From a virus (Duplodnaviria > Heunggongvirae > Uroviricota > Caudoviricetes): 35,210 bases of DNA. The notes under the pieces are model-generated. The model did no database searches. It was given only the letters and a program-made list of their open reading frames with translations, and had not been told where the DNA came from. The stretch lies in IMG/VR virus record IMGVR_UViG_2565956633_000004, positions 1-35,210 of that record, one strand, 5' to 3'. The translations under genes and the position numbers were made by a program. Of the stretch, positions 2,356 to 35,210 are shown one piece after another (position 1 is the stretch's first letter; each line of letters begins with the position of its first letter).

Positions 2356-2900
2356 GCCTCCATCGCTTTATCAGGTTTGTCGGTGTTACTGCCCTGACCG
2401 TTCTCTCTGTGACGATGCCCGTTATAGGCAAGCCGCATCGCTGACATGGTGGTACCGCCGGAGTCGCACAGGTCTTTCACCTGTCCGGTCACTTCCAGGT
2501 CCATTTCAAAACGTGCCTTAGGCGCATTGCGAAACGTGATCGTTTTACCTGCACCGTCCACCACGATCCCCTCCCGGGTCAGCGTCACAGACTGCCCCTG
2601 ATCGTCATAGACAGCCACCTCACCCGTCTGCAGCCCTTTCAGGCGGTAGCGCCGGTCCGACACCGTAACAACCACCGCATGAGAACGGTCGCCATCCGGA
2701 AACAACACCACCGCTTCCGCACCGCTGTTTGCCCTTGCGGTAAAACCGTAGGGTTCAAGATGTTCAACCCCGGCTTTGGGTTCACCGGCAATCAGGGACA
2801 CATCCACGGTCTGACATTTCGTGGCGGCACTGATGCTTTTCACCACGGCCCGCCCAATCAGGCCGAGGAGTTGTCGCTGCATGGCTTCAATCGTCCTCAT
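2352..2900 (-). CDS. Baseplate assembly protein V / central spike (Mu gp45 family)
   Basis: 182-aa ORF, N-terminal OB-like region followed by Gly-rich C-terminus; synteny. Confidence 0.65.
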   Translation of the reverse strand: MRTIEAMQRQLLGLIGRAVVKSISAATKCQTVDVSLIAGEPKAGVEHLEPYGFTARANSGAEAVVLFPDGDRSHAVVVTVSDRRYRLKGLQTGEVAVYDDQGQSVTLTREGIVVDGAGKTITFRNAPKARFEMDLEVTGQVKDLCDSGGTTMSAMRLAYNGHRHRENGQGSNTDKPDKAMEA

Positions 2901-3979
2901 CAGAACGGCTCCTCCTGTACTCTGGCTTTTTTCTTTTTCCGCGCGCCGGGGGCTTCGGGTTCAGGCAGATAAGCATCAGGTGGGCCGACACGGATTTCCG
3001 TCAGGGTGCCGTTCTGGTCCTGAGTAAACGTGACTTCCGAGACAAGCAGTTCGGTATTGTCGAAACCACAGACCGGATCAAAGACAATCACCCGCTGGTT
3101 GGGCTGCCACAGCGTACCGTTACCCTGTCGCCAGCCCTGCACCACATAGGTGGTTTCATCCGTCCGCGCCGCCCGTTGTCGGGCTTCAAAGTCCGCACGG
3201 GCAATACAGCCTGCCCCCGTAGCCTGCCCTGTCTGCCTGATATACATCGGACGGTAACGGGCAATAAATGCGTCCTCTGTGCGGGCCCGCAGCGCGGTGG
3301 TGGTGGCCTCACCGAAATCATCGTCGTTTCCGGCACGCTGCCCCGCCACCTGGTAAACTGAAAACCGCTCCCGGATACTCTTCTCCGTATCACAGGAAAG
3401 GATGTTTTCCCCAAGTACCAGCGCGGTATGTGCCCGCGTTGAGCCAATACCACCAATCACCAGCCTGCCGTGCGGGTCGTCATAAGCCAGCGCCTGCTGC
3501 TGACCGAGTATTTTGTTGATCACCTCGATCACCGTTTCACCGTGATCAGGCTGGACATCCGGAATAACACCCGACGGCGCATCGCTGTTCACCACCTCAA
3601 TGCCGAAAGGCGCAGCAAGCGCCTGCGCAATCTGCACCAGCGAGCGTCCGTTAAACTGTGTCGGTTCGGCTGCACAGTCAATCAGGTCAGCCGTCAGACT
3701 ACGTCCGGCAATACCGGTGCTGACCGAACGGGCATCGTAACGAACGGGGGTCGCCTCCACCCAGCCGGTGATCACCAGCTCATCACCAATCAGCACTTCC
3801 ACTTTTGAACCATTTTTAATGCGCGGCTGAAGCGTGGTGATACCCTCATCTCCCGGCCACTGGCGGGTGATCTCCACGCTGAAATCCCGCGCCAGCCGTT
3901 CAATACCGGCACCGATGCGCACCGATGTCCAGCCATTCCACTCCCGGCCATTTACCCGTAGCGTGACGTTCTCGTTCAT
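2900..3979 (-). CDS. Baseplate hub protein (Mu gp44 / P-like)
   Basis: 359-aa ORF directly downstream of the DNA circularization protein N homolog; synteny with Mu tail module. Confidence 0.6.
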   Translation of the reverse strand: MNENVTLRVNGREWNGWTSVRIGAGIERLARDFSVEITRQWPGDEGITTLQPRIKNGSKVEVLIGDELVITGWVEATPVRYDARSVSTGIAGRSLTADLIDCAAEPTQFNGRSLVQIAQALAAPFGIEVVNSDAPSGVIPDVQPDHGETVIEVINKILGQQQALAYDDPHGRLVIGGIGSTRAHTALVLGENILSCDTEKSIRERFSVYQVAGQRAGNDDDFGEATTTALRARTEDAFIARYRPMYIRQTGQATGAGCIARADFEARQRAARTDETTYVVQGWRQGNGTLWQPNQRVIVFDPVCGFDNTELLVSEVTFTQDQNGTLTEIRVGPPDAYLPEPEAPGARKKKKARVQEEPF

Positions 3980-5304
3980 TGCACTGGCACCTTCAGAGGG
4001 ATCACCGGCACAAAGCCGGGATGCGTAATGGCATTACGCCGGATAATGTCCGCGTCACGCGCCGCGTTATCAAACCAGGTCGCCGCCAGCACCAGCGCGG
4101 GTAAGACCTCATCCGGCGTGCGCTGAATGATCCGAGCAGACTGTTCAAGGCGCGTGTTGATATCCGCATTCAGATCTGCTTTCACCCGGCGCAGCGCCAG
4201 AAACAGCGCATCACTGGTTGTACGGGACAACTCCTTATCAATTGCCGTATTCAGTGTGTCGCGAATGTCAGTCAGTTCTTCCCACGTTGGCAGGTCAACC
4301 GTGTTTTTCACCGCCGGTGCATTGTTCAGTGCCGGATGCGTGACGGAAGGCCAGCCGGTGCTCTGCGCGGAAGTTGTTGACTGCCCCACTGCGGCATTCT
4401 GCATCACCGCGGAAGTTGTTGGCGCAGGCAATCGGGTGACGGCATACGCCGCTTCGCTGATTGCGGTCGCACGAAGGGTGCTGGCAACCACGTTACGCTG
4501 CTGCGTCGCCGTGGCGGTGGTTTTACTGTCCGTTTTCCAGATGCCGCGCGGTTGCAGATCGCTGCCGAGGCTGACACCGGAAAGCGTTTTGATCATGGTG
4601 ACCAGGTCGCTGGCGTTACCATAAAGGCGTTTCCCGGTACGCCACATTTTCTGCACCTGCTCAACGAAATTTTTGCCTGACGATGGCGGCGGCAGAAGTA
4701 CCGAGATATCCCCCTGCAACAGCCTGGCGGCATCCGATACGGCAGAATCCACCACTTTCATCGCATCAGAAACATACCCCAGCATTATGCTGGCATTACC
4801 GATAACGTCGTTCTGCACGAAATCCGCCACACCATCGATACTGAAACCGCTGAAGCTGTCACTGATGCAGTCATCCAGTGCAGAACAGGATGACATCAGC
4901 GTCTGCGCCGTCGCCGCACCTGATGTGGGGTAAGAGAGTTCTCCCGCTTCGACAAACTTCAGGTCAAAGCGGACAATACGCCCTTCACTTTTCGATGTGC
5001 TGACCCGAACCTCTCCGTCAACACAGACTTTCAGCTCACCGTAAGTCGGGTGGACAAGCGTGCCGGGACCGGGTTTATTCAGCGCGTCAATCAGGCGATC
5101 GCGCTGGTCAAAGCAGTCATCGCCCACCACATAAGCCGTGATGGACGGGCGGAAAGTGACTTTTCCCAGATCTTCGGTATAGGGTTTGTCGCGGTTCGGA
5201 TATTCGTGTGTTTCCACACGGCGACCTGTTCCCGCACTTTCTTCTTCAACCTTAAACGGCACACCGCGAAATGACGCGTCCTGAAGCCTGTCTTTCCACG
5301 TCAT
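3976..5304 (-). CDS. Mu gp43-like DNA circularization protein N (tail protein)
   Basis: Conserved N-terminus MTWKDRLQDASFRGVPFKVEEESAGTGRRVETHEYPNRDKPYTEDLGK. Start re-assigned to the ATG at 5304 (GGAG 5 nt upstream); the ORF-track extension to 5352 would translate through a terminator hairpin. Confidence 0.8.
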   Translation of the reverse strand: MTWKDRLQDASFRGVPFKVEEESAGTGRRVETHEYPNRDKPYTEDLGKVTFRPSITAYVVGDDCFDQRDRLIDALNKPGPGTLVHPTYGELKVCVDGEVRVSTSKSEGRIVRFDLKFVEAGELSYPTSGAATAQTLMSSCSALDDCISDSFSGFSIDGVADFVQNDVIGNASIMLGYVSDAMKVVDSAVSDAARLLQGDISVLLPPPSSGKNFVEQVQKMWRTGKRLYGNASDLVTMIKTLSGVSLGSDLQPRGIWKTDSKTTATATQQRNVVASTLRATAISEAAYAVTRLPAPTTSAVMQNAAVGQSTTSAQSTGWPSVTHPALNNAPAVKNTVDLPTWEELTDIRDTLNTAIDKELSRTTSDALFLALRRVKADLNADINTRLEQSARIIQRTPDEVLPALVLAATWFDNAARDADIIRRNAITHPGFVPVIPLKVPVQ

Positions 5305-5316
5305 ATAAACTCCGGA

Positions 5317-5341
5317 TATAAAAAAGCCCACCGAAGTGGGC
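5317..5341 (-). terminator. Rho-independent terminator closing the PH-domain moron
   Basis: Minus-strand GCCCAC-TTCG-GTGGGC hairpin followed by TTTTTTATAT, immediately after the moron stop codon (5368) and before the N-gene RBS. Confidence 0.7.
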
Positions 5342-5367
5342 ATGAAAGACATAAATTAATGTAAGGT

Positions 5368-5745
5368 TTACCCTGCTATTTTTTGAGCCAGATGAGCCTG
5401 CAATTTATAAATGTTTGCTCCTTTACTGAACTGTTTTTTTATCGGTTCTGCAATACCAGAAATCCATATCTTCATTTCAGCATCAAGATCAAGATGCCCG
5501 GCGGTTTCAATAGAAAAGTTTGTCACAGATTTATAAGGAATCGAACGATACTCTACTTTTTTCCCTGTGACACCCTGCTTATCAATAAAAATTAACCTTC
5601 TGTTAGTCAGAATAATTTGGTCACGAATGAGTTTATAGGCAAGTTCGACATTTTCTCCCTCACCTAAAACAGCCCCTAATTCCTGTTGTGCATCTGATGC
5701 ATTAATTTCACCGGCATTACCTATAATGGCATGTAACAGACCCAT
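5368..5745 (-). CDS. Moron: small PH-domain-like (bacterial PH/GRAM-like) protein
   Basis: AT-rich ORF between tape measure and N genes; start placed at internal ATG 5745 (AAGGGA RBS); core LTNRRLIFIDKQGVTGKKVEYRSIPYKSVTNFSIETAG resembles bacterial PH-domain proteins; own promoter-like TATAAT upstream and own terminator downstream. Confidence 0.5.
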   Translation of the reverse strand: MGLLHAIIGNAGEINASDAQQELGAVLGEGENVELAYKLIRDQIILTNRRLIFIDKQGVTGKKVEYRSIPYKSVTNFSIETAGHLDLDAEMKIWISGIAEPIKKQFSKGANIYKLQAHLAQKIAG

Positions 5746-5797
5746 AGATTTCCCTTCAGTTGATAACAAACTTAAAGACAAATTATATCTGGTTCCG

Positions 5798-7633
5798 TCA
5801 TCTGCCAATATGCGTATAGCCAACATCGTGATTTATATCAAAACCGCTGGATCGCGTTTCCATAACCCGCATACCCGGAGGCGAATTCACAAAAGAGACC
5901 TTGATCTCACCGTCAACTTTTGGCGCAGAAGCTTTGTTAATCATGAAGGGATTCGGGCCTGTAGCATCGGAGGCGTTGTTTGACTGAGCCGGATCTACCG
6001 CCGGATAAGGTGTGTATCCCCGCGCCGGTATTCCCGTCCCATAAGCATCATAAGCACCCGCGCCCCACTGCGCCGAGTTAATGGCATCGACCGTGTCACC
6101 GGAACTGTCGGTAAACCACTCAATAATTGGCTTCAGCTTGTCCCACATATCCTGAAACCACTTAACAACCGGTCCCCAGTTATTGATTACCATCCCCAGC
6201 GGCGACCAGGCAAAAACCTTCTTCAGAAGTTCCCAGCCAGCCTCAAAATAAGGACCAATGGTTTCCCAGAGCTTCTTGAAATAAGGTCCAACAACATCCC
6301 AGTTAGTGATAATTAATCCCGCAGCCAAGGCAATCGCCGTCGCAATCATGCCAATCGGCGTCATCGACATGATCCTGCTGACGATACTGATGGCACTGCC
6401 CACGCCCATCAATCCCAGTTTCAGAATCGCAAGACCGGCAGCAAGCCCGACGACGCCGCGAATAACCCGGGGATTTTCATCCGCAAACTTCGTGAATTTT
6501 TCCCCCAACTCCCCCAGCCATTGCGTGATATTTTTGGCGTCACCAGAAAATGCGCCGCCAATAGCCGCAAGGCCGTTAGTTGCGGTCCCCGTCATTGCCT
6601 CCCACAGGTTGGACAGCGTACCAAGCTGTGCCTGAACACGTTTATTCAGGCTGGCCTGTTTATTCATCTTCTGCTGGATCTGATCGTAACCATCCTTTCC
6701 TTTATCGATTAGTGCATTGACCACCTGAAGGGTTTCGGCATCATCACCAAATATTGCCTTAAGTACGCCTGTTCGCTTAACGTCGGTCAGTTTTCGCAGC
6801 TTTGCCAGTTGCCTGAACATGTTATCAAGACCGCCAAAACTTCCTTTGCCGTCAGTAAAATCGAGCTGTACCCCGAGTTTCTGGCGGGCCATGATTTTAT
6901 TGACGTCCCTGATTTTCTTAACGCTTAATCCGGACTGGATAACTTTTCGCAGGGCATTACCTGCCGACTCCCCGTTCATCCCCATCTGATCCATCATGAC
7001 GCTGATGGGGGCAAGGCTCTGTGCAGCCTGAAGACCGTCCTTGTTCACCATCTTCAGAACAGAACTGGTTTTAGTGAAGAAGGACAACATGTTGGTATCG
7101 TCAACGCCCAGATAAAACGCCTTCTGGATAGTGTCGAACAGCCCCATCATGTCTTCTGACGCCGTTCCGGTAGCATCCTGCATCTTTGCAGCAAACTCAG
7201 CAGCCGCTTCCGGTGTTTTTTTCAGTTGTACCGCAAGATAAGCTGTCGCTTTACCCACACCGCCAAGAATGTTTTCTGCCGGGATCCCCTGACGCACCAG
7301 CATCTGCATCATGTTCTGGAAATCAGCCGTTGTACCGGGTAGCTGGTTACCCAGGCCAATAGCCAGTTTATTGATGTCCTGAAAGCTCTTTCCAACCTCG
7401 CCATTCGCATCCATCATGGCGACTTTCAGCCCGGTGGCGGCGTTTTCCTGATCGGCATAAGATTTCAGGGAAAGCGTCAGACCCGCTGCCAGTCCGCCAC
7501 CAAGCGCCAGCCCACCCTTTGACGCTTCTTCCGCCTGGCGTTTAAATCCCCGGATTTTCTTTTGCATTTTCGACAGCGCGGGAGAAAGCCTGTCGACACC
7601 GGTGATCAACGCCTTAAGCTCAAATTCAGCCAT
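5798..7633 (-). CDS. Tail tape measure protein
   Basis: 611-aa ORF, Ala/Gly/Leu-rich with predicted helical and C-terminal hydrophobic segments, directly after the frameshifted tail chaperone pair. Confidence 0.8.
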   Translation of the reverse strand: MAEFELKALITGVDRLSPALSKMQKKIRGFKRQAEEASKGGLALGGGLAAGLTLSLKSYADQENAATGLKVAMMDANGEVGKSFQDINKLAIGLGNQLPGTTADFQNMMQMLVRQGIPAENILGGVGKATAYLAVQLKKTPEAAAEFAAKMQDATGTASEDMMGLFDTIQKAFYLGVDDTNMLSFFTKTSSVLKMVNKDGLQAAQSLAPISVMMDQMGMNGESAGNALRKVIQSGLSVKKIRDVNKIMARQKLGVQLDFTDGKGSFGGLDNMFRQLAKLRKLTDVKRTGVLKAIFGDDAETLQVVNALIDKGKDGYDQIQQKMNKQASLNKRVQAQLGTLSNLWEAMTGTATNGLAAIGGAFSGDAKNITQWLGELGEKFTKFADENPRVIRGVVGLAAGLAILKLGLMGVGSAISIVSRIMSMTPIGMIATAIALAAGLIITNWDVVGPYFKKLWETIGPYFEAGWELLKKVFAWSPLGMVINNWGPVVKWFQDMWDKLKPIIEWFTDSSGDTVDAINSAQWGAGAYDAYGTGIPARGYTPYPAVDPAQSNNASDATGPNPFMINKASAPKVDGEIKVSFVNSPPGMRVMETRSSGFDINHDVGYTHIGR

Positions 7634-21422: not shown

Positions 21423-22175
21423 TTATCTTGTCACTTTTCTCAATTGTGTCTCTGCATATGCTTCTTCCTGCCAGCACTTTGTAACCAGTTTATCAATGAC
21501 ATCTGCATATCCTTTGTACCACTGATAATCCGTCAGATCCGGTACCAGCTTCTGGACATGATGCCGCGCCAGTGTGGTTGGTAAACGGCTAAACCGGTTT
21601 CCATTGCAACGCCCACAAATCTTATAAACAGGCGCACCATGAAGCCGGGTTCTTTTTTCATCCAGTACAATACCTTTCCCCTTACACCCTCTGCACGCTG
21701 TGCTGACCTCTCCCTTACCATGACAATGCTGACATAGTTCCTTCACCCACTCTTCCTTGATAACAGATTCCCCGCTTCTGGAGTGTTTCACCACTTCGCG
21801 CAATACATTATGAAATCCAGTACCAGCACAATGCTCACAGCGAGCCTTACTTGCCGCAGACCTGGAATAATCAGCAAAGGCAAAATTCACAAGGTAAGGG
21901 ATGATCTGTAACCGGGTTTCTTCACTCAATTTGTTCAATGTCGGGTTATCCAGTGCCATCGCGTAATTGAGCAGACCTTCAATCGCAAACTGAGGATCCT
22001 GAACACCAACTTTTGCCAGAAATAAGGCAAACCCAAGCGGTGCTTTCGACTGCACCATCCCCTGCGCAGCCATCACATCCGTAATCGTTAAACCACCCGA
22101 GCCTGTCGCCGGTGCCTCATCGCTCAATTTGGGAGATTTTGGGGAGTAATATTTTGGTAAGGCTTCAAGGTTCAT
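21423..22175 (-). CDS. Q: Late antiterminator Q (lambda Q family) with expanded CxxCxGxG zinc-finger repeats
   Basis: YSPKSP, TDVMAAQGM, FAFADYSRSAA...ARCEHCAGTG and C-terminal ...VTR parallel lambda Q as I recall it; four CxxCxGxG motifs; sits directly upstream of late promoter and S. Confidence 0.75.
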   Translation of the reverse strand: MNLEALPKYYSPKSPKLSDEAPATGSGGLTITDVMAAQGMVQSKAPLGFALFLAKVGVQDPQFAIEGLLNYAMALDNPTLNKLSEETRLQIIPYLVNFAFADYSRSAASKARCEHCAGTGFHNVLREVVKHSRSGESVIKEEWVKELCQHCHGKGEVSTACRGCKGKGIVLDEKRTRLHGAPVYKICGRCNGNRFSRLPTTLARHHVQKLVPDLTDYQWYKGYADVIDKLVTKCWQEEAYAETQLRKVTR

Positions 22176-27393: not shown

Positions 27394-28086
27394 ATGAACA
27401 TAGGAAAACGAGTCAGACAACTTCGCCAAGCGAAGAACATGAAAATCGCCGATCTCGCTGAAGCAATAGGAGTAGATGCGGCGAACATCTCGCGCTTAGA
27501 AACGGGTAAGCAGAAACAATTTACCGAACAAACACTGAGTAATATTGCCAAGAGCTTAGGTGTTGATATTGCTGATCTCTTTACCTCTGCCCTCAAAAGT
27601 AATACTGTATATAAAAACAGTAATGATGAGGATGTTGCGCAGGTGAAGGATGTGTTCCGTATTGAAATGTTGGATATCAGTGCCAGTGCGGGAAATGGCC
27701 TTATCCAGGGCGGTGATGTCATTGATGTGATTCATGCCATCGAATACAGAACTGATAATGCTGTATCAATGTTCGGCGGACGACCAGCCAATCACATCAA
27801 AGTTATCAACGTTCGTGGGGACAGTATGTGTCCAACCATTGAGCCAGGAGATCTCATCTTCGTTGATGTCAGCATCAATCAGTTTGATGGTGATGGTATA
27901 TATGTCTTTGGTTTTGATGACAAAATATACGTTAAAAGACTTCAAATGATTCCTGACAAACTGCTGGTGATTTCTGATAACCAGATTTACCGTGAATGGG
28001 GAATTACTAGCGAAAACGAACACCGATTCATGGTCTTTGGAAAGGTCTTAATCAGTCAGTCGCAAACCCTTAAGAGACATAATTAA
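27394..28086 (+). CDS. CI-type prophage repressor (HTH plus S24 LexA-like autopeptidase domain)
   Basis: 230 aa; N-terminal HTH (MKIADLAEAIGVDAANISRLETGK), C-terminal VRGDSMCPTIEPGDLIFVD...KIYVKRL S24 motifs. Confidence 0.9.
   Translation: MNIGKRVRQLRQAKNMKIADLAEAIGVDAANISRLETGKQKQFTEQTLSNIAKSLGVDIADLFTSALKSNTVYKNSNDEDVAQVKDVFRIEMLDISASAGNGLIQGGDVIDVIHAIEYRTDNAVSMFGGRPANHIKVINVRGDSMCPTIEPGDLIFVDVSINQFDGDGIYVFGFDDKIYVKRLQMIPDKLLVISDNQIYREWGITSENEHRFMVFGKVLISQSQTLKRHN
27603..27622. promoter_or_regulatory. Near-consensus LexA (SOS) box inside the cI coding sequence
   Basis: TACTGTATATAAAAACAGTA, a CTGT-N8-ACAG palindrome with TA flanks; differs from the E. coli consensus TACTGTATATATATACAGTA only in the central AT tract. 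Confidence 0.4.
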
Positions 28087-33188: not shown

Positions 33189-33209
33189 TGCCAATCGATC
33201 ATGTCGATT
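33189..33209. promoter_or_regulatory. Perfect palindrome CCAATCGA-tcatg-TCGATTGG upstream of the 57-aa ORF
   Basis: 8-bp arms, 5-bp spacer; a second dyad CTACAA-t-TTGTAG lies at 33267-33279. Confidence 0.35.
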
Positions 33210-33316
33210 GGTGACATCGTTTCTTAGTAGTTTAAGCACAAAACGACTGCCATAGATGTACCTTTAAGGTAATCTGGACGGGTATCCTACAATTTGTAGA
33301 CCCTTCTCGTCTATAC

Positions 33317-33853
33317 CTACTGAGCAAATTTAAGAAAGATATCCTGCAGCTCATCAATGACTGCAGACATCACATAACCGCACTGTTCCATGCGGAAACC
33401 AAAAGACTCGTAATACTGCACCAGTTCTGGTACTGGCTCTACAATGTGGACAACTTTACATTCAACAGCTTTACAAAATATAAAAGCACTCATAAGAGTG
33501 AGTAAAACCATGCGCCCTTTCAATGGGTGAGATTCATCTTCTCTAGAAAACCTTTCGATCATATGGATACGAAAGATGTTTTCTTCAACCCCATAAACAC
33601 AAATTGCTGCTCCTGATGGTATTCCCTGAACCCGACCTTGCTGAACAAGTTTTATGCAGAACTCATACTTTTCTCTGGAGTTGCCATAGGTGCTTAACGC
33701 ATAGTCCCATTCAAGCTCACCATAGCCACCACACAGAATCTTGTAATCATCATCACTGAGCGGACCAACAGCAAGAGGTAAGCCGACATGATCAATAATC
33801 AACTGGATATTGTTACGTACAGATTGACCTATCTCGTCTAGGGTAAGCATCAT
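33317..33853 (-). CDS. Hypothetical protein, AT-rich (possible acyltransferase-like fold)
   Basis: 178-aa ORF; segment HPLKGRMVLLTLMSAFIFCKAVECKVVHIVEPVPELVQYYESFGF loosely resembles a GNAT motif-A region; weak assignment. Confidence 0.35.
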   Translation of the reverse strand: MMLTLDEIGQSVRNNIQLIIDHVGLPLAVGPLSDDDYKILCGGYGELEWDYALSTYGNSREKYEFCIKLVQQGRVQGIPSGAAICVYGVEENIFRIHMIERFSREDESHPLKGRMVLLTLMSAFIFCKAVECKVVHIVEPVPELVQYYESFGFRMEQCGYVMSAVIDELQDIFLKFAQ

Positions 33854-34392
33854 AGACTCTCAAGCGGAACACTAAAAATCTCATTATATCTCATTCTGAT
33901 GCCCGGCATGGATTACACCTTGAAATGAAAACACCGGGTTCCCAATAGGCTCCCACAAAGTGTATAACTACTTGTTTTTCAAAAACGGTACATCCTATCG
34001 AGCATTGGTGCAACGCTAAACCGACCACTCCAGTGAACGTCAGTTTTTTCAGGCATTGCGCTGGTTTGGTTGATTTTTTGCATTTCAGAATTACCGTGCA
34101 TTTTCAAATGTAGAGATTATTTTATCGATATATCATGGGGTTATGTTATTCAGCATCACTGTTCAGGAGGCTCAATAACGGGGTACTATACCATAACAAC
34201 AGGAAGCGCCTGTCTCATTGCAAAAGAAAATTGAGATCCTCTCAAGGCATGAAGCTCTCACGAAGTGATGGAAATAATCTTATTAGCCGTTAGCTTTGTT
34301 AAGGCCAATGATAAACAATCCAGGTTCGACGATAAATAAAAATCACACATTAAACTCCGGTGATATCTCTCCCTGCTAATAGCACTGATAGA

Positions 34393-34422
34393 GAAAAAAA
34401 GAACCCAATAAGCATTGGGTTC
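34393..34422 (-). terminator. Rho-independent terminator after the partial AT-rich gene
   Basis: Minus-strand GAACCCAAT-GCTT-ATTGGGTTC followed by TTTTTTT. Confidence 0.65.
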
Positions 34423-34463
34423 TTTTATGTAATGCCTTCCATACCATCGAAGAACTTCACATA

Positions 34464-35210
34464 TTATTTCTCCGATTTAACCCCGAATAAATCATAAATT
34501 AATTTAGAAGTGTCTGTATATATTTTAATCTTTTCCTTTGAGTTTGGGTCAAACGACTTAGCAAAGTCAATTAATTTCGGTGCAGCATCTCGCATTTTGC
34601 TTAAAATATCAGGGGCGAGCTTTCCTTCATTCACCAGATGTGACATCTTATCCAGATAGCCATCAAAATTCATTTCTCCCCCATCTGCCAGACGCTTCAT
34701 CTCTCCCAGGTACTTCTTCATATCACGTTGAGATAACTCTTCAAACTGAGCTGTCAGATAGTTCTCATTATCATCATTAATATTCACTTTTTCTGCTCCT
34801 GCTAAATCTGTGTAGGCACTAGAGTATGAAAGTGAAATCAACAGCGAAGCGAATAATTTTAAGCTGTTGTCATCATATTCCTGACATGCATTAACAAACG
34901 TTAAAAAACCAGAACCTATTGCTTGCAAATGTATATTCGCTAAAGGTTCATTATCTTTAGATTCCTCATAAAAAAGCTGAACCGTGGAGGGAAGGCCATT
35001 CTTGGTTTCTACATCAAAAGTATATCGTTCTATGGGCGTTGCATCTTTATTATCCTCAGGATTACATATACTATTAATCGCAAAATGAAAAATAGCCCGA
35101 TCAACAACTGATGCAATAAATTCACGATCGTTTAATTCCTCATCAGTGCAATCTCCAATATACTTATTAACCCACTCTTTGAGATTAGTTATTTGCTCAA
35201 TTAAAAACAC
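34464..35210 (-). CDS. Hypothetical protein, AT-rich, 5' end outside window
   Basis: 248 codons open to the window edge, no start codon inside the window; acidic, Lys/Asp/Glu-rich; no domain recognised. Confidence 0.45.
   Translation of the reverse strand: MFLIEQITNLKEWVNKYIGDCTDEELNDREFIASVVDRAIFHFAINSICNPEDNKDATPIERYTFDVETKNGLPSTVQLFYEESKDNEPLANIHLQAIGSGFLTFVNACQEYDDNSLKLFASLLISLSYSSAYTDLAGAEKVNINDDNENYLTAQFEELSQRDMKKYLGEMKRLADGGEMNFDGYLDKMSHLVNEGKLAPDILSKMRDAAPKLIDFAKSFDPNSKEKIKIYTDTSKLIYDLFGVKSEK

Follow-up and report, generated by a model that had tools for sequence, protein, structure and literature searches.

The window analysed here is a 35,210-nucleotide (nt) stretch of viral DNA (IMG/VR record IMGVR_UViG_2565956633_000004, positions 1 to 35,210). 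It represents an Escherichia coli prophage of the SfV/SfII/SfI type, with an HK97-type head, a contractile tail of the Mu type, a Q antiterminator and a CI-like repressor. The tail genes have counterparts annotated Mup39-45 in phage SKA5, and two of them, the tape-measure gene and the DNA-circulation gene (the N gene, whose counterpart is annotated Mup43/N in SKA5), are separated by a gap of 493 nt that contains a single open reading frame (ORF); the local genes are all on the minus strand. The ORF encodes a protein of the bPH_1 (PHb1) family and is referred to below as the PH gene, and the gap as the tape-measure/N slot. The features of the slot, in the order of transcription, are as follows.

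5798..7633, minus strand: tail tape-measure gene, 611 amino acids (aa), PF10145 PhageMin_Tail (E 1.3e-26), with its stop codon at 5800-5798; upstream neighbour of the PH gene
5803..5808, minus strand: -35-like hexamer TTGGCA, in the 3'-terminal part of the tape-measure ORF
5782..5787, minus strand: -10-like hexamer TATAAT, 15 nt past the -35 and 36 nt before the ATG
5342..5797, minus strand: cassette, approximate extent relative to the empty slot, a net gain of 433 bp over SfII, SfV and SfI
5751..5757, minus strand: ribosome-binding site (RBS) GAAGGGA, 5 nt upstream of the PH-gene ATG
5368..5745, minus strand: PH gene, the cassette cargo, 125 aa plus stop, PF08000
5320..5341, minus strand: intrinsic terminator GCCCAC-TTCG-GTGGGC followed by TTTTTT, immediately preceding the N-gene RBS
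5313-5310, minus strand: N-gene RBS GGAG
3976..5304, minus strand: DNA-circulation gene (Mu N or gp43 type, baseplate hub), PF07157 DNA_circ_N (E 2.9e-34); downstream neighbour of the PH gene

The AT-rich unit that the original prediction had recognised between tape measure and N is evident in the base composition, with a GC content of 0.37-0.40 across 5251-5850 as against 0.52-0.60 on both flanks. The PH gene itself has a GC content of 0.38 (0.29 at third codon positions, GC3), and the tape-measure and N genes have values of 0.52 and 0.57. The predicted ORF of ~125 codons, with the peptide that had been quoted from it, is exactly 125 aa long (5745..5368, minus strand), and the RBS claimed for it is the GAAGGGA located 5 nt before the ATG. 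The left junction of the cassette is blurred, the last few tape-measure codons also differing between slot states.

Membership of the protein in PF08000 is established from the profile, the fold and the site residues. The bPH_1 profile (formerly DUF1696) is matched at E 3.1e-48 with 163.2 bits (cut-off 27.7), residues 3-122 of the 125 aligning with profile positions 2-121 of 122; there is a secondary Pfam match to bPH_3, and a match at E 6e-54 to phrog_7115, a PHROG with no assigned function. The bacterial PH/GRAM-like core that had been proposed is borne out by the profile search and by two crystal structures (E ~1e-39), PDB 3dcx (E 4e-39, 52.7% identity over 112 residues) and PDB 3hsa (E 1e-38, 49.6% identity over 121 residues). 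By this homology the fold is PH-like, a seven-stranded beta-sandwich with a C-terminal helix as its cap, in keeping with the original prediction, and with ~50% identity to crystal structures settling the fold a separate structure prediction is superfluous. The two structures are of the PHb1 proteins of Shewanella loihica and S. amazonensis, which have a PH/GRAM/GLUE-like fold and assemble into dome-shaped rings of five, where two neighbouring subunits together build a conserved site of largely acidic character (Xu et al. 2010, PMC2817789). All eight conserved residues of the acidic site are kept in the window protein (D42, D55, Q57, K63, E80, D86, D88 and E90 in PHb1 numbering); in an alignment of 11 cellular and phage members six of them do not vary and the other two are conserved to at least 90%. 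From its ~50% identity to pentameric proteins the window protein would be expected to assemble as a C5 ring. The membrane association suggested initially is not supported: the highest 19-residue Kyte-Doolittle mean is 0.58, and there is no hydrophobic segment, signal peptide or lipobox. The RefSeq name of the protein is 'PH domain-containing protein' (WP_001514801.1).

The cassette is missing from close relatives of the prophage. Phages SfII, SfV and SfI have flanks, with orf14-type genes for the tape measure, that are 96-97% identical at the nucleotide level and align in two pieces spanning 2268 bp, compared with 2701 bp in the window, and vB_EcoM-689R6 likewise lacks the insert between flanks that are 96-97% identical. 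A survey of 5426 complete E. coli genomes found some part of the tail module in 1101 and matches to both flanks in 854; the insert is present in 28 of the 5426, each time at least 99% identical. As predicted for an inserted, moron-type cassette, the PH gene is missing from most of the related tail clusters and does not qualify as a universal structural gene. Patchy presence, foreign composition and a site that can hold other cargo support a horizontally acquired, accessory origin.

That other cargo became apparent in 48 records matching both flanks, taken at even spacing along the ranking. The slot is empty in 25 of them and carries an insert of ~0.62 kb in 12 (a 170-aa protein with an N-terminal signal-like segment), an insert of ~0.7-0.76 kb in five (the 0.76-kb cargo being a 225-aa lipoprotein with the lipobox LLGGC), a gene annotated 'OB-fold protein' in four (a transmembrane-anchored, tRNA_anti-like protein, PF12869, antisense to the tail operon) and the PH gene in two. 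The alternative cargoes, which correspond to window positions 5305-5797, are located at 2595-3107 of locus L002 (minus strand), 1259-1936 of L006 and L008 (minus strand), 1316-1762 of L007 (plus strand) and 1233-1619 of L009 (plus strand). The three other cargoes have N-terminal hydrophobic segments with Kyte-Doolittle values of 1.7-2.2, as against the 0.58 of the PH protein, and the SKA5, lipoprotein and OB-fold cargoes have no PADLOC match at E up to 1. The tape-measure/N gap is a cargo hotspot for at least four unrelated single-gene cassettes, with the PH gene among its rarer occupants, and no description of this slot was found in a limited search of the literature.

The tape-measure, PH and N segment also occurs on a plasmid-class record, NZ_AP023208.1 (70,209 bp, E. 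coli TUM18781). Plasmid records hold 13 of the 1250 places at which the tail module was located, and these could be phage-plasmids or assembly artefacts.

Outside E. coli the PH gene occupies the same slot in Edwardsiella phage EPP-1 and in a second Edwardsiella-type contig (L014), where the PH protein is 89% identical to that of the window and the tape-measure and N proteins are 69% and 67% identical. EPP-1 has, between its own tape-measure stop codon and the PH gene, a non-coding stretch corresponding to approximately the last 40 nt of the E. coli-type tape-measure ORF. This remnant (TTGATGTAAATCACGATG...TATTGGCAGATAA; EPP-1, L004, 5850-6000, and L014 3849-4000), which includes TTGGCA, is best read as a recombination scar, so that the cassette would have travelled from one tail module to another, carrying part of its flank along. 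Comparison of the window and Edwardsiella PH genes gives a proportion of non-synonymous differences (pN) of 0.06 and of synonymous differences (pS) of 0.75, the synonymous sites being saturated, with a ratio of the corresponding rates (dN/dS) of ~0.02-0.03. The PH gene is under strong purifying selection and, with pS saturated and pN low, has been kept functional for a long time.

The promoter-like element of the original prediction, TTGGCA-15-TATAAT, is present and its -35 hexamer does lie in the tape-measure ORF; the -10 hexamer, placed there as well, is past the stop codon. No other site in the window comes as near to the sigma-70 consensus, with 11 or more of the 12 positions matched (both strands, spacers of 15-19 nt), and in simulated sequence of the same composition a site of this quality occurs in ~0.6% of 150-nt single-strand stretches. 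Standard scans with spacers of 16-18 nt call no site before the PH gene, either in the window or in EPP-1, and nothing convincing before the other cargoes. This silence does not count as evidence, because the antisense OB-fold gene must have a promoter and yet none was found there either. An antisense cargo needs a promoter of its own, which shows that genes with independent transcription do occur in the slot. The autonomy of the PH unit and its expression from the repressed prophage, both asserted at the outset, would depend on the one candidate promoter-like site. In EPP-1 the TTGGCA hexamer is in non-coding DNA. The AAGGG of the RBS is kept in EPP-1 and L014, and GAAGGGA also precedes the unrelated cargo gene of SKA5.

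The strong terminator claimed just before the N-gene RBS is there, as a hairpin followed by six T residues. The 55-nt stretch that includes it has a folding energy of -12.7 kcal/mol (z -3.2), with none of 200 shuffled sequences as stable, and the hairpin is 100% identical in EPP-1 and L014. It is not a hallmark of the insert. The empty slot of SfII has a related hairpin (TCCCAC-TCCG-GTGGGA-T6) annotated as a terminator, and all of the forward-oriented slot states examined, the empty one included, have a hairpin and T-run just before the N-gene RBS, so the terminator cannot be credited to the insert alone; the antisense OB-fold state has no hairpin terminator at this position. No terminator separates the tape-measure gene from the PH gene. 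Two regulators of the prophage are encoded elsewhere in the window:

21423..22175, minus strand: Q-type antiterminator, PF03589 Antiterm (E 1.1e-53)
27394-28086: CI-like repressor

Lambdoid Q proteins allow late transcription to read through terminators such as an intra-operon one.

The closest homologue of the PH protein is encoded by a chromosomal Edaphovirga gene (72% identity), and proteins of Photobacterium, Endozoicomonas, Bordetella, Bacillus, Clostridium, Streptomyces and Herpetosiphon are 57-66% identical to it. The neighbours of 20 cellular homologues from different genera include no conserved partner gene, the most frequent being an aminotransferase (5 of 78) and DoxX (3 of 78). One homologue with 65% identity, on the Logan contig SRR29693848_86 (L016 1-10378), has surroundings unlike the other chromosomal contexts, with genes for a KAP-family NTPase, a protein with a Tpt1/KptA-type RNA 2'-phosphotransferase domain, a DUF2625 protein and several proteins with no Pfam match; the region looks like a variable or defence-island-like one.

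In other phages the family is found mostly away from the tail. The presence of PHb1 genes in lysogeny modules has been noted before (Xu et al. 2010, PMC2817789). In Lactococcus phage ul36, ORF124 is located between the integrase and ImmA/CI genes, and in the Vibrio 186-like phage 10N.286.45.B12_PE001 (L017 4240-8402) the order is cI, bPH_1, a gene for a 612-aa SIR2-like protein, a small ORF and integrase. This SIR2-like protein gave the only PADLOC matches, to the Aga SIR2-PNTD models (E 3.5e-64), and neither the ul36 nor the Vibrio PH protein has one at E up to 0.1. Among 32 non-redundant IMG/VR viral contexts, inspected over two genes on each side, the commonest neighbour families are HTH_3/XRE (9), the Peptidase_M78 protein ImmA (6), integrase (3), S24 (2) and the Ltp exclusion lipoprotein (2). 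The bPH_1 gene is on the same strand as a CI-like repressor, ImmA and/or integrase gene in 13 of the 32 contexts, mostly flanked by them, and these contexts include bPH_1 copies 54-58% identical to the window protein. In four contexts it is located just before genes sized like small and large terminase subunits, with Terminase_4 among the neighbours, and the tail slot accounts for only two. Copies of bPH_1 at contig ends (e.g. L066-L073) were left uncounted, as these could be host genes at a mis-called prophage edge. The window protein belongs to the cellular-type branch of the family. The ul36, Min1 and Vibrio proteins are much more diverged, at 26-45% identity to other members and to each other, and any transfer of function between these branches is therefore an inference.

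The reading we favour is that the cassette is a moron expressed in the lysogen, whose product forms a ring that interferes with competitor phages; we give this whole chain a probability of about 0.4. The PH gene would have been captured from an enterobacterial chromosome, and recombination within the conserved flanks would since have carried the cassette from one tail module to another. During lytic growth it would be transcribed with the tail operon, there being nothing to separate it from the tape-measure gene, and polymerase modified by Q would pass the terminator. In the lysogen there is probably a low constitutive transcription from the putative TTGGCA-15-TATAAT promoter, and the terminator would keep this transcript out of the baseplate genes. 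More speculatively, the protein may form a cytoplasmic pentameric dome, the acidic sites of which could dock on a basic, conserved partner located on the cytoplasmic face of the inner membrane or close to it. The lysogen might then benefit, most likely because a competitor phage is hindered as it enters or replicates (exclusion or defence), and not through a contribution to tail building. Competitor interference is ranked first because of the placement of relatives in lysogeny modules, the SIR2 neighbour, the envelope-protein cargoes of the slot and the precedent of HK97 gp15. The role in superinfection exclusion (Sie) that the original prediction had considered possible stays hypothetical, with indirect support from the position of phage homologues in lysogeny modules.

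Several observations weigh against this reading. The PH protein has neither a membrane segment nor a signal peptide, unlike known Sie proteins and the other cargoes of the slot, and has no match in PADLOC-DB v2 at E up to 1. The putative promoter has a suboptimal 15-nt spacer and is missed by a standard scan of 16-18 nt; its -10 hexamer is TATAAC in the two Edwardsiella copies, which weakens the case for a conserved promoter; and its TTGGCA belongs to the coding sequence of the tape-measure gene and recurs in the empty-slot phage SfII (TTTGGCAGG). Only ~3% of the related E. coli prophages matching both flanks keep the PH gene, and in 4 of the 28 genomes that have it the gene is interrupted by IS1 and the disrupted copies persist (NZ_CP075062.1, NZ_CP117717.1, NZ_CM142896.1 and NZ_LR890651.1, with IS1B inserted ~312 nt into a 453-nt query corresponding to window positions 5345-5797), so the prophage tolerates loss of the gene. 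The cellular homologues are solitary, highly conserved genes with ordinary metabolic neighbours, which suggests a general cellular activity and not one dedicated to phage defence. In addition, the membrane-anchored PHb protein of the lactococcal prophage bIL285 is called sie285, but resistance is attributed in PMC6127208 to sie309 and sie312 only.

A role in host physiology is nearly as likely as competitor interference, although taken by itself it is somewhat unlikely. Here the prophage would supply an extra copy of a cellular-type bPH_1 protein that aids the lysogen under envelope or other stress, as a form of lysogenic conversion. The relationship of the protein to the cellular branch (72% identity to Edaphovirga, ~60% across phyla, site residues kept) and the solitary chromosomal location of its cellular homologues agree with this, as do the regulation of the Bacillus subtilis homologue YozO by sigma-W (PMC2817789), the presence of YvbH and other homologues in membrane or insoluble fractions (Xu et al. 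2010, PMC2817789) and the altered lysozyme and nisin sensitivity associated with the PHb-carrying prophage bIL285 (PMC6127208). On the other side, the adjacency to repressor, integrase and SIR2-like genes in phages fits inter-phage conflict at least equally well. Moreover, megablast with the cassette (at least ~85% nucleotide identity) matched the 28 prophage genomes only, so E. coli has no close chromosomal copy of it.

The PH gene could instead be expressed solely with the tail operon and serve the phage's own lytic cycle, the promoter-like site being fortuitous; possible roles are conditioning of the host envelope before lysis, late protection from superinfection and counter-defence. The late transcript must include the PH gene, with no terminator between it and the tape-measure gene, and the RBS is good; the non-optimal spacer, the -10 hexamer that is not conserved in Edwardsiella and the -35 hexamer that is ordinary coding sequence are all compatible with such a role, as are the four viral contexts in which bPH_1 precedes terminase-sized genes, in late or structural territory. 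We nonetheless consider it unlikely, given that bPH_1 is encountered in phages most often in lysogeny modules, co-oriented with repressor and integrase genes, and not in late operons, that another cargo of the slot, being antisense, needs a promoter to itself, and that the 11/12 promoter-like site has no equal in the 35 kb and is suitably positioned.

Less likely still, the protein could be a solitary 'toxin', an effector of growth inhibition or abortive infection that is set off by infection and harms the cell. The model for this is the solitary growth inhibitor GinF (SpyT3, Streptococcus pyogenes MGAS10270), which blocks translation when over-expressed in E. coli and for which a PHb-like fold similar to that of 3dcx has been predicted (PMC3337138). 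The likeness of GinF is a published fold prediction, its authors reported no conserved domain, and tblastn against phages at E 1e-5 returned no Streptococcus phage homologue. Cellular bPH_1 genes, furthermore, are solitary and constitutive-looking, occur in many phyla and have no partner antitoxin, which is difficult to square with toxicity, and the Shewanella proteins could be produced in crystallography quantities (PMC2817789).

Finally, a structural or assembly role in the tail, which the co-oriented position inside the tail cluster and the same position in the Edwardsiella phage sequences might suggest, is effectively refuted by the presence/absence pattern: the gene is missing from SfV, SfII, SfI and most E. 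coli relatives with 96-98% identical tail genes, is replaced elsewhere by unrelated envelope proteins and exists in IS1-disrupted copies, and the bPH_1 family is mainly cellular and in other phages is found in lysogeny modules.

A broader form of the favoured reading, in which soluble bPH_1 rings make up an unrecognised and very widespread class of anti-phage or exclusion factors, each encoded by one gene and expressed from a prophage, and the tape-measure/N gap is an undescribed defence or exclusion hotspot, we regard as doubtful. Temperate phages of Proteobacteria, Firmicutes and Actinobacteria would then have repeatedly captured a conserved cellular gene, and the rings might cap or titrate, from the cytoplasmic side, a conserved component needed by incoming phages.

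The right end of the window (33200-35210) is a second AT-rich stretch, with a GC content of 0.35-0.43. It includes a DUF2713 gene (34464-35210, minus strand) that runs off the window end and a 178-aa ORF (33317-33853, minus strand) with no Pfam match, which are possibly further accessory genes in the early-left region of the prophage.

The family, its fold and its occurrence in lysogeny modules were already known (published in 2010), and the RefSeq name of the gene is correct. What is new is the tape-measure/N gap as a hotspot for multiple cargoes, the occurrence of the cassette in two genera along with a recombination scar, and the survey of bPH_1 contexts in phages. PF08000 has had structures since 2010 and ~60% identity across phyla with no function assigned, and its repeated capture by temperate phages, together with purifying selection at positions typical of prophage-expressed genes, offers a rare functional clue. 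The E. coli cassette provides a tractable test system, with identical copies (e.g. in E. coli G3/10, NZ_CP060075.1, gene at 2070146-2070523), natural empty-slot and IS1-disrupted controls, and coliphage panels. The slot itself may serve as a place to search for lysogenic-conversion or exclusion genes, approximately half of the sampled related prophages carrying cargo there. Should the PH gene have no detectable effect, it would stand as a well-documented ordinary moron; the finding would be somewhat more interesting if bPH_1 proteins did prove to be a widespread prophage exclusion factor.

Among characterized proteins the window protein is closest to Shewanella PHb1 (3hsa and 3dcx), with which it shares the ~125-aa size class, the full-length profile match, 50-53% identity, the acidic site and the lack of a membrane segment. 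The difference is in location, the PHb1 genes being solitary chromosomal genes and the window gene part of a prophage tail cluster. The lysogeny-module genes (ul36 ORF124, Microbacterium phage Min1 ORF77, bIL285 orf2 and gene 4 of the Vibrio phage PE001) belong to the same Pfam family, are temperate-phage accessory genes and are placed where prophage-expressed genes lie, although between repressor and integrase rather than in the tail. With the window protein the ul36, Min1 and Vibrio proteins share only 33-40% identity, and they have also diverged widely from one another; bIL285 orf2 (sie285), at 181 residues, carries an N-terminal extension (Xu et al. 2010, PMC2817789) and is a membrane protein according to PMC6127208. 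In the literature searched, no phenotype is reported for the ul36, Min1, bIL285 or Vibrio genes.

As a genetic arrangement the cassette resembles HK97 gene 15, the original moron, a yebO-derived gene in the tail operon that is expressed from the prophage and blocks DNA entry, according to the summary of Juhala et al. 2000 and Cumby et al. 2012 in PMC3594210. Both are single small genes of foreign composition in the tail operon beside the tape-measure gene, both are absent from close relatives and have promoter-like and terminator elements, and both are of cellular origin (YebO there, bPH_1 here). Gene 15 is upstream of the tape-measure gene, whereas the PH cassette is downstream of it, and gp15 is an inner-membrane protein with prophage expression and exclusion of DNA entry shown, whereas the window protein is soluble.

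The slot has a further parallel in the P2/P4 hotspots, which were reportedly described by Rousset et al. in 2022 as fixed sites with variable accessory genes in temperate phages and satellites; Tai genes, too, are said to have been found at 'moron loci'. The tape-measure/N slot shares with hotspots of the P2/P4 type a fixed site and alternative, unrelated single-gene cargoes in near-identical phages, and differs in that its cargoes match no PADLOC defence model. The location in the membrane or envelope that is usual for Sie proteins is not seen in the PH protein. Of the four characters by which morons are recognised (PMC3594210), three are found here, namely the 433 bp absent in relatives, the deviant composition and the terminator. 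For the fourth, a promoter of its own, there is a candidate 11/12 site with a ~0.6% chance of occurrence per 150 nt, a 15-nt spacer and TATAAC in Edwardsiella. The element is a moron in a cargo hotspot, and as such of a familiar kind.

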